Source: Psilocybe cubensis (Eukaryota). Taken from it: a stretch of DNA of 64,000 bases. The notes under the pieces were generated by a model. That model was not told the DNA's origin. It saw nothing but the letters and a program-made list of their open reading frames with translations, and did no database searches. Made by a program: the position numbers and the translations under genes. Position 1 is the first letter of the stretch. Each line of letters begins with the position of its first letter. The stretch spans positions 2,294,001 through 2,358,000 of the forward strand of contig CM039000.1 in the NCBI GenBank assembly GCA_017499595.2, written 5' to 3'. Below are positions 25,008 to 27,720 of this stretch, one piece after another.

Positions 25008-26829
25008 TCAACGGAGAGTGACAAGTTCTTGTGAAAGTCGGAACAAGGATCAGTCAATGTGTTGTAAAAAGATGGTCCTTGACTAACCTTCTCCAGAAGT
25101 GGGATGAATGGCCACAGTGTCATCCAGGTCTTGTTTTGTTGCTGCGAAAAAACATCGTTTAGAGGCAGGGAAAAGAGAACCGATTTTGTTTACTTACCGC
25201 CCATCTTTACGGCGACTCCAAAGCCTTGCATGACTTCATCGCTTCCCAAACCAATGATATGTACACCGACCACCTTTTCTTCAGGTCCGGCGCAGATTAA
25301 TTTGTATACGGTTGGCTCCTTGTGCTCCTCCTCCACCATGGAGAAATATAGAGCACGGAATCCTGACCTGTCTGTGATATTTAAATATCATTTCAGCAAG
25401 ATGAAGATGAAGAAGCAAGGGAAGACATACAAATTTTAATCTGGTCATCGCCGTATTTTTTCCTCGCCTCTGGCTCCGTCAAACCGACAGTTCCGATAGG
25501 AGGATGTCTGTAAAAGCGCCATCAGCAAAGCGATTGAAATAAAAAAATCTGAAATGCATCACTCACGAGAAGACAACAGTCGGTATGTTTTCGTAGCTGA
25601 GTTTATCATTCTTGAATTTCTCTGGACCAAATAGGCGGTTCGAGAGTCTCCTGCCAGCAGCGATAGCGACGGGCGTCAAAAGCCATTTACCCTGGACATC
25701 GCCGATAGCAGTGACGCCCTTGACCGACGTATTCTGGTACTCATCCACAACAATATCGCCTTTCTTGTCCAGCTTCACCCCGACCTCCTCCAATCCAAGC
25801 CCTTTAGTACTGGCATGCCTACCAATGGCCCATAACAGCACATCCACCTCGATCTTCTCTCCTTTATCCGTGTGCACGGTTAACGGGCCACCCTTTTCGC
25901 CTTCAACCTTGGTGACATGCGTCTGCTTGTGTAGATGCACGCCGCTCTTTTCCATCCACGGCGTCAGCGTCTCCTGCAGCGTCGGGTCAAACGTCCTCAG
26001 CACCGTCTCACCGCGGATCAGAAGATGAGTCTCGGTGCCCAGCACATTGAAGATCCCGGCGAGCTCGACAGCAATATACCCAGCGCCGACGACCGCGACG
26101 CGCTTCGGTTGGTCCTCCAGCGCAAAGAAGCCATCCGAATCAATACCGAGGCTCGCGCCTGGGATCTCCTCGTCAGACGGCAGCGTCGGCTGTCCGCCGA
26201 CGGTGATACAGATGTTGTCTCCCTTGAGGACGTACGTCTGCCCGTCCGGGCGCTTCACCTCGACCTCTGTCGCGCTGAGCAGCTTGCCGAAACCCTGGTG
26301 GAATTCAACGCCCTCGCGGTCAAAGTTGTTGGCGTAGATACCATTAAGTCGGCGGATGTAGGCGTCGCGTTGGGGCTTGAACGTCTTCCAGTCAAATTTG
26401 GCGTTCTCGACGCCGGTGAATCTGTAGCCGCCCGCGTGGTTTGTGATTTTATCTTGAAGATCTGCGGCGTGCCACATAATCTGAAAAAAATGTTGTAGAT
26501 TACATGTATATGCAATAATGAAGACATTATGCTGACTTTCTTGGGCACGCAACCTGATGAGAGGCTCAATATATGCGCACGAATTAATCAACTATCCTAT
26601 TACATACCGACGTTCACACACGTTCCTCCCAGATGAGGTGTGGCTTCGACAACGGCAACCTTTTTGCCATACGACGCCGCCCTCCTCTAGAGAAAAACCC
26701 CATTAGTGGATGCTCCAAAAACAGCAAAAAGGAGAACTTGCTCACAGCCGTACCGGACCCTCCACTGCCACCCCCTATAACAATATAGTCATACTTGTCC
26801 GCAGTTGGTTTATCGAAAATCGGCGGCAT
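25008..26829 (-). CDS. GLR1: Glutathione reductase (AUG-initiated form)
   Basis: [24 protein letters not shown] active-site region; [46 protein letters not shown]. Confidence 0.98.
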
Positions 26830-27161
26830 ATTCTTGTTAGCAGTGCTGTTAATCGCTGGTGGTTTCGAAGAAGAGCTGGTGGTGCTTAATGCCCTGTAAA
26901 CCTATTGAAACAAAAGGCAAAAGGATGACGATTGTCAACAACGCAATACGACGGTAAACATCCAAATACGCCCAACGCACCTGCGAAAGCCGAAGACTAG
27001 GGGACGCAATCTTTCCTGCAACAGACGTATAGCCCCGCGAGCAAGCGGCGGATCCAGAGAACGAAGGGGAAGAATAGGAGAAAGAGAGACAACGCGGTCT
27101 GCTGGTTAATAAAGCCCGGAACGCCAGATCTAAATCAGCACAGTCAGCAAAGCAGTCCTCG

Positions 27162-27169
27162 TATTTATA
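27162..27169 (-). promoter_or_regulatory. TATA box of GLR1
   Basis: TATAAATA on the minus strand, about 35 nt upstream of the AUG-free presequence-coding exon. Confidence 0.5.
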
Positions 27170-27720
27170 ATAAACCAAATACTCGTGCACCCACCTGCAA
27201 CTGATCACGGAAACTTTTCCTGTAGAAAGGGAGGTATTATACTTATACAAGCCTTGAATTGAGTGCGTGATCAGCCTATCAAAGGTACTAGAAACAAAAA
27301 GCTCTGCTCAATCACATTTTCAGGTCAAGATAAAGCATAGAAAGCACGCACCGAGTATGGCGCAACCGTGTCGTCACTTTGCTGAACAGAGAAACGAATT
27401 CCTGCAGAGCCTTGTAGTCAGCAACCTATCAAAGTGACTAAAAAAAGTCGCGATGGTCACGTGTATTTAATTTATATTTGGCGCGTGGCAAATCGACTTG
27501 GCTCATGTAGACCGTACTTGCCCGCTCAACTTGAAATCACGCAAAGTATTATTATCGCGAGAGAAAGGATGTGATTGAATAAATTGATCAGCGTGCTAGA
27601 AATATAATAAGATGACGACGAGGAAGGAAAAGAAAAAATGTGATGAAAAGATACAGAGTAGTGAACTTGTAGAGTATGACAGAGTGGTGAGGAAGAAACA
27701 CAATTGAGACAAAAAAAAAT

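Follow-up and report, generated by a model that had tools for sequence, protein, structure and literature searches.

Can one glutathione reductase mRNA supply both the cytosol and the mitochondria of a mushroom when its leader offers no second AUG? The question is raised by the GLR1 gene of Psilocybe cubensis, which lies on the minus strand of the window analysed here (the whole stretch of 64,000 nucleotides from contig CM039000.1; all GLR1 coordinates below refer to the window and to that strand). An earlier note, made from the sequence alone, proposed that two ATG-free exons ahead of the annotated AUG encode a mitochondrial presequence and that a CUG start, read by leaky scanning, gives rise to a mitochondrial isoform.

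The coding region of GLR1 (25008..26829; 472 amino acids, seven introns) is defined by a gene model that reproduces protein record P0002, by the junctions found in two of the sequencing runs described below (X1 and X2), and by family membership. P0002 is labelled Psilocybe cubensis and is matched at 100% by the largest GLR1 exon; it scores 626.3 bits against TIGR01421 (cut-off 556.15) and 605.5 against PRK06116 (cut-off 480), which places it among glutathione-disulfide reductases (GLR1/Gor). The best-scoring candidates in the genome comprise a single glutathione reductase locus, 67-100% identical by exon, and other matches at 26-39%. The annotated AUG (26827..26829), at which P0002 and the cytosolic form start, has A at -3. 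A 17-nt micro-exon (26553-26537), included in X1 and X2, carries the second redox-active cysteine of the active site, and the last intron of the gene ends in AAG.

Five sequencing runs cover the stretch, none of them recorded as RNA; four were compared, X1 and X2 from one study and X3 and X4 from another. Contigs of X1 and X2 have nine joints across the region and those of X3 and X4 have none, so that X1 and X2 behave as spliced mRNA. (Contigs of this kind reveal neither start sites nor rare splice forms, and a coverage gap at 27320-27450 as well as contig depths were excluded from the evidence.) The nine introns in use are 54-79 nt each. Leader exon 1 as observed (27195..27288) comes from a piece of an X2 contig, its 5' end being a lower bound; it contains no ATG and has in-frame stops at 27273 and 27207. 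Intron 1 (27130..27194; 65 nt, GT..AG) follows; both X1 and X2 contain its joint at 27129/27195, which X3 and X4 lack. Leader exon 2 (26981..27129), delimited by sequence and contigs, encodes residues 1-49 of the putative presequence and ends in R-L-x-Q. It is separated by intron 2 (26902..26980; 79 nt, GT..AG, phase 0) from the leader part of exon 3 (26830..26901), which is 24 codons long in the window gene and 12 in most orthologs. A joint at 26899/26979 that skips 79 nt is present in X1 and X2 contigs and absent from those of X3 and X4; the junction 26980-26902 proposed earlier is in use in both RNA-like runs (two of two, one study). The sequence likewise bears out the proposed architecture, with exons 27127-26981 (147 nt) and 26901-26830 (72 nt) on either side of a 79-nt GT..AG intron, joined in frame to the AUG at 26829, and with no ATG in either exon.

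Once spliced, the leader measures at least 315 nt and contains no ATG at all, splice junctions included, in the observed splice form. Frame analysis of the spliced mRNA puts an in-frame TGA (27205..27207) five codons above the CUG; in this splice form no start farther upstream can therefore be read into the leader frame, which is open for 77 codons below the stop. An upstream in-frame AUG was sought in the observed spliced leader and none was found, so that the mRNA does not have the dual-AUG arrangement of yeast. An unseen upstream exon supplying an ATG had been named as something that would undo the proposal: the exon exists and, in the observed splice form, it is free of ATG and bears an in-frame stop. 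A 152-codon unspliced open frame from 27307 was ruled out as coding, since it spans a spliced intron. ATGs at 27338 and 27317 were rejected as sources of a start; they head frames of 8 codons and 1 codon ending at 27314, with no in-frame donor.

Intron 1 also changes the picture of what lies above the CUG. The TATAAAT at 27169, which the earlier note had placed just above the CUG as a promoter element, is intronic (27194-27130), is spliced out in X1 and X2, and is rejected as promoter of the observed mRNA. The acidic residues that had been read directly above the CUG lie in the same intron and are removed with it in both runs. The attached caveat that the CUG may lie too close to the cap falls for X1 and X2 molecules because their contigs reach 27288 (X2) and about 27272 (X1, judged from the length of the joint's side); in the observed molecules, 96 nt or more separate the 5' end from the CUG. 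The earlier note had also named a transcription start below its first exon as a refuting condition; the contigs attest transcripts that reach beyond that exon on its upstream side. A candidate promoter element, also TATAAAT, is present at 27470..27476, between the RNA end of the upstream gene and the leader. In the interval of about 270 nt (27561-27288) between the RNA contig of the upstream gene and the GLR1 leader contig, this TATAAAT (27476) is accompanied by three short ATG frames and, near 27463, a CACGTG box. The upstream gene itself has a 709-codon S-rich frame (30484-28355) and a 58-nt intron in its 3' UTR (28068-28011, minus strand) that is spliced in X1 and X2; lying ~290 nt below the stop codon, this intron is a possible nonsense-mediated decay feature.

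The proposed start CUG (27125..27127) has G at -3, G at +4 and C at +5. Below the stop no near-cognate codon precedes it in frame, and the frame holds no other CTG. The fallback starts that had been suggested below it, ACG and ATT, fare differently: ACG 27028 is rejected as main start for its poor context (T at -3 and at +4), and the AUU at 27008..27010, which lies 34 codons above the AUG and is flanked by A at -3 and G at +4, holds up as a second candidate. In the ortholog L003 an AUA occupies the same K-I-A tripeptide, 31 codons above the AUG of that locus. A hairpin below the CUG was looked for, and none is consistent across loci (z from -2.6 to +1.3; -0.2 in the window gene).

The 73-codon extension that begins at the CUG is basic and S/T-rich, with 0 D/E, 19 S, 6 R, 7 L and 9 R+K, in agreement with its original description as acid-free and rich in R, S and L. 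An equally long frame free of stops and of D/E arises in 0.14% of 5000 same-base shuffles, and the other two frames of the leader contain 2 and 3 stops. Taken by itself, the no-stop/no-acid pattern is weak in five orthologs (shuffle chance 0.03-0.18). The helical hydrophobic moment of the extensions is moderate (0.35-0.58, a range that stands without a control set). An R-10 type motif, R-x-(F/L/I)-x-x-(S/T/G), at 26866..26895 predicts a cut by MPP followed by removal of an octapeptide; the part of PMC7996597 used here associates the R-10 motif with MPP and then intermediate peptidase cleavage. The full motif lies 22 residues above the Met in the window gene. R at -10 together with F/L/I at -8 from the cytosolic Met is found in eight of ten loci, and the full three-position motif in five of ten (spacings and exon lengths were counted from 31 rows); R at -10 is missing in L006 and L014, and the motif of the window gene is 12 residues farther from the Met. 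With predicted R-10 processing, the mature mitochondrial enzyme of the orthologs would begin at the cytosolic Met. With the 24-codon exon of the window gene, 12 extra residues would remain after such processing.

Conservation was examined in loci from a metagenome scan. Of 80 loci, 12 were read by eye, having been picked for high identity, for introns or because the match began at the first residues; those left unread looked bacterial (about 50% identity, unbroken match). L005, L015 and L054 have too little upstream DNA, and the 5' end of L010 is absent. Nine fungal loci have usable upstream DNA, with core identity to the window gene of 55-82%, and seven of these (L003, L006, L007, L008, L009, L013 and L014) have purine-NN-CUG-GC in frame. 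Their extensions are 27-84 codons long (27-44 in all except L003), rich in S and R, stop-free and ATG-free, with 0-1 acidic residues. When the window gene is included, the stretch from CTG to AUG lacks in-frame stops and ATGs in 8/8, the codon after CTG specifies Ala (GCN) in 8/8, and D/E are absent from 7/8 extensions, with one acidic residue in L003. Stops or frameshifts in orthologous leaders, which the earlier note had said would count against it, do not appear in the orthologous loci examined. The other two loci, L004 and L011, have 32 and 72 open AUG-free codons, respectively, before the contig ends, with no CTG-G within. L011 (1-217) is intron-free, is nearest an Apiotrichum record and has an R-10 motif before the Met; lacking CTG-G in its available part, it may use another start or be a truncated locus.

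The pattern RNN-CTG-G had been set in the earlier note before the orthologs were tested, and its occurrence was scored in eight fixed 270-nt intervals. It occurs in frame once per interval in 8/8, and off frame once in all 16 readings. Shuffling gives a chance of 0.105-0.167 per locus, with a product of 5e-7 over seven orthologs and of about 2e-4 over the four that have no upstream in-frame ATG. L007, L008 and L013, which are mutually 83-90% identical, were treated as one group. In each of them an in-frame ATG precedes the CTG, by 14-28 codons and at distances that differ, and these loci may be AUG-started because no stop intervenes (in the genomic frame). The ATGs of this group are either untranscribed chance occurrences or the mark of a lineage in which AUG and CUG alike serve as starts. 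In L003 the 450 nt above the AUG hold no ATG, and in L006, L009 and L014 a stop lies 8-12 codons above the CTG.

At the beginning of the leader frame it is the codon that is conserved, not merely leucine, since the Leu of R-L-x-Q, itself conserved, is encoded by CTT, CTC or TTG in seven loci and never by CTG; synonymous positions thus do change within these leaders. (A Fisher test of 7/7 CTG against 4/39 among other Leu codons, p 6e-6, is partly circular and was set aside because the start Leu had been chosen as CTG.) The 20 nt around the CUG are identical in the window gene and L003, the cores of which are 82% identical; an AG in the upstream part of this block suggests that intron 1 is shared as well. 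(Pairwise DNA alignment of the leader with L003 misplaced this shared block.) To judge from GT/GC..AG ends and frame, intron 2 lies at the same point, after R-L-x-Q, in L003, L004, L006, L007, L008, L009 and L013. Its donor is apparently GC in L009 (300-375) and its acceptor apparently AAG in L013 (2133-2197). L014 is nearest records of Mixia, Tilletia and Kalmanozyma, at 55-57%.

Protein records point the same way, as far as the choices of gene callers can be followed. Among the best 120 matches, the start is the M-P-P/M-A-P Met in 60 of the 62 full N-termini (proteins of up to 534 aa), which suggests that agarics are mostly without an upstream in-frame ATG. In several of the 29 longer matches the model continues through the leader, where R-L-x-Q/x-x-R recurs. 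M-A-L opens a Panaeolus record at a comparable point, which suggests that an AUG replaces the CUG in Panaeolus, and L-A-F-R is read at this point in a Favolaschia fusion model. A search with the N-terminal region gave 24 matches and few new extensions.

The explanation that we consider probable is that GLR1 makes two proteins from one mRNA, with a CUG-started mitochondrial presequence read by leaky scanning; its translation and import are what we infer. The original proposal of a leaky-scanned CUG gains support from the splicing of both leader introns, from the ATG-free, stop-bearing upstream exon and from retention of the CUG in 7/9 loci. Scanning ribosomes would begin at the CUG part of the time and produce a precursor of 545 residues whose presequence is basic, S/T-rich and free of acidic residues. 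The precursor would enter the mitochondrial matrix and be trimmed by MPP and then, at the R-10 motif, by intermediate peptidase. Most ribosomes would skip the CUG and meet no other AUG before the strong one at 26829, from which the cytosolic enzyme of 472 residues would be translated; the weakness of the CUG codon would set a low mitochondrial share. AUU 27010 may add a second, shorter precursor.

This AUU could also be the main start of a genuine presequence, which would then be 34 residues long. Its context and its AUA counterpart in L003 speak for it, as does the length, which fits most orthologs (27-44 codons except in the window gene and L003). Against it stand the identical 20 nt around the CUG in L003 at 82% core identity, the recurrence of the L-A-F start in L013, L014 and P0123, and a frame that is open and acid-free from the CUG onward, with the CUG coming first in scanning order; a principal role for the AUU is unlikely. 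Only slightly less likely is that the CUG precursor is made while the cytosolic form comes mostly from a shorter transcript, driven by the TATA-like element in intron 1 and beginning at or just below the CUG, so that transcription sets the isoform ratio. The intronic TATAAAT 27169 is ~40 nt above the CUG, AT-rich elements are seen by eye 20-60 nt above the CTG in several orthologs, and alternative start sites support dual targeting in some Cryptococcus genes (PMC7049704, in the part drawn on). The contigs would hide such a nested transcript and therefore do not disfavor it; however, the element is intronic in both RNA-like runs, and AT-rich stretches are common in introns.

It is somewhat less probable still that the leader is an untranslated relic of a presequence that formerly had its own AUG, with only the cytosolic enzyme now made. 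The annotated proteins do start at the AUG, and translation of the CUG leader is a deduction, but a relic would not retain the open frame, R-L-x-Q, the intron phase, the R-10 spacing and the CTG, all of which persist across loci 55-82% identical; moreover, a neighbouring conserved Leu changes codon while the CTG stays. We give the least credence to a rare splice form that would put an upstream AUG in frame and start the mitochondrial form as in yeast. ATG 27506 can be joined in frame on paper, by splicing from a donor at 27460 to the acceptor at 27130 (331 nt) or from 27497 to 26902 (596 nt); contigs drop rare forms, and three related orthologs do have an upstream in-frame ATG. Neither joint is seen in the contigs, however, where introns in use are only 54-79 nt, and ATG 27506 requires a transcription start above TATA 27476. 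The ATG-free upstream stretch of L003 and the stops of L006, L009 and L014 oppose such a form as well, and it leaves the invariant CTG unexplained.

The proposed CUG initiation upstream of the AUG of GLR1 can be set beside several established systems (comparisons hold for those parts of the cited papers that they draw on). In yeast GLR1 both starts are AUG codons. Mitochondrial and cytosolic forms of the Saccharomyces cerevisiae enzyme arise from alternative starts, the subject of work by Outten and Culotta in 2004 (PMC11653698). The mushroom gene likewise would make a long mitochondrial and a short cytosolic form from one glutathione reductase gene, and differs in that its upstream start is CUG, its presequence has 73 residues and is split by an intron, and its leader has two introns. 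Closer in mechanism are the 'DualNCC' synthetases of Cryptococcus, ArgRS (AUU) and LeuRS (ACG/AUU), in which a near-cognate codon opens the mitochondrial signal; across fungal lineages such codons and weak AUGs take each other's place (PMC7049704). GLR1 shares with them a single-copy gene, an in-frame AUG-free open leader on the mature mRNA, a near-cognate codon in strong context that is conserved (7/9 orthologs, three of the seven with a competing upstream ATG) and a strong downstream AUG; leaky scanning would be common to both, and the composition and R-10 motif of the GLR1 extension are consistent with a putative matrix presequence. It differs in being a redox enzyme and in its codon, CUG, and the DualNCC cases are backed by ribosome profiling or fractionation, whereas the argument for GLR1 is made from splicing and conservation. 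In yeast, Ala1, Grs1, Hfa1 and Hyr1 have mitochondrial isoforms started at near-cognate codons, a widespread feature there (PMC6582344).

Among basidiomycetes, Pgd1 of Ustilago maydis makes a peroxisomal isoform from AGG-AUU (PMC7214817). Pgd1 and GLR1 are both NADPH-linked enzymes with a targeting signal (putative in GLR1) hidden in the annotated 5' UTR and a conserved non-AUG start (in GLR1 a proposed one); Pgd1, by comparison with GLR1, has a peroxisomal PTS2, a tandem AGG-AUU and proof by reporter mutants. The cpc-1 gene of Agaricomycetes has one positionally conserved near-cognate start in good context (PMC5487733), but its codon varies (AUU, UUG, AUA, CUG) and its extension is not a targeting signal, whereas the GLR1 codon is CUG in every locus showing it. 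A full-text literature search, with most subscription papers outside it and with supplementary tables that could list such a case, turned up no account of non-AUG initiation in a fungal glutathione reductase. The word 'glutathione' is absent from the main text and one supplement text file of PMC7049704 (other supplementary tables of which could list GLR1), and Glr1 is not mentioned in the main text of PMC6582344. The mechanism is established in fungi, with glutathione reductase as a new case.

A CUG start is also found in mammalian thioredoxin-glutathione reductase. In the Psilocybe cubensis genome, the thioredoxin reductase gene TRR1 has a leader of 32 in-frame codons with no ATG and no D/E, rich in R/S/T/L and headed by adjacent ACG and CTG with A at -3 (G000, C6, 1110044-1110142; L089, 1286-1384; plus strand). 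To judge from sequence, it is probably a second non-AUG mitochondrial presequence. A bolder reading, doubtful at present, is that mushroom-type fungi supply mitochondrial thiol-reducing systems by non-AUG starts (the CUG of GLR1, and TRR1 likewise), and that the GLR1 CUG predates the split between Agaricomycetes and other basidiomycetes, an age suggested by the non-agaricomycete records to which L014 is nearest. If this were true, start-codon stringency would be one dial for mitochondrial redox capacity, responsive to stress without change of mRNA.

With a CUG as the probable start, ATG-only gene models of mushroom-type fungi would overlook the mitochondrial GLR1 isoform, and the proposed start implies that most agaric models of this gene (the 60 of 62 noted above) miss a real isoform. 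In mushroom-forming fungi, the conserved CUG of the GLR1 leader could serve as a clean reporter of how stringently start codons are selected. Initiation at the CUG would explain how a mushroom with one glutathione reductase gene and no annotated targeting signal could reduce mitochondrial glutathione, and GLR1 can be thought of as one gene that solves dual targeting by AUG in some lineages and by CUG in others.
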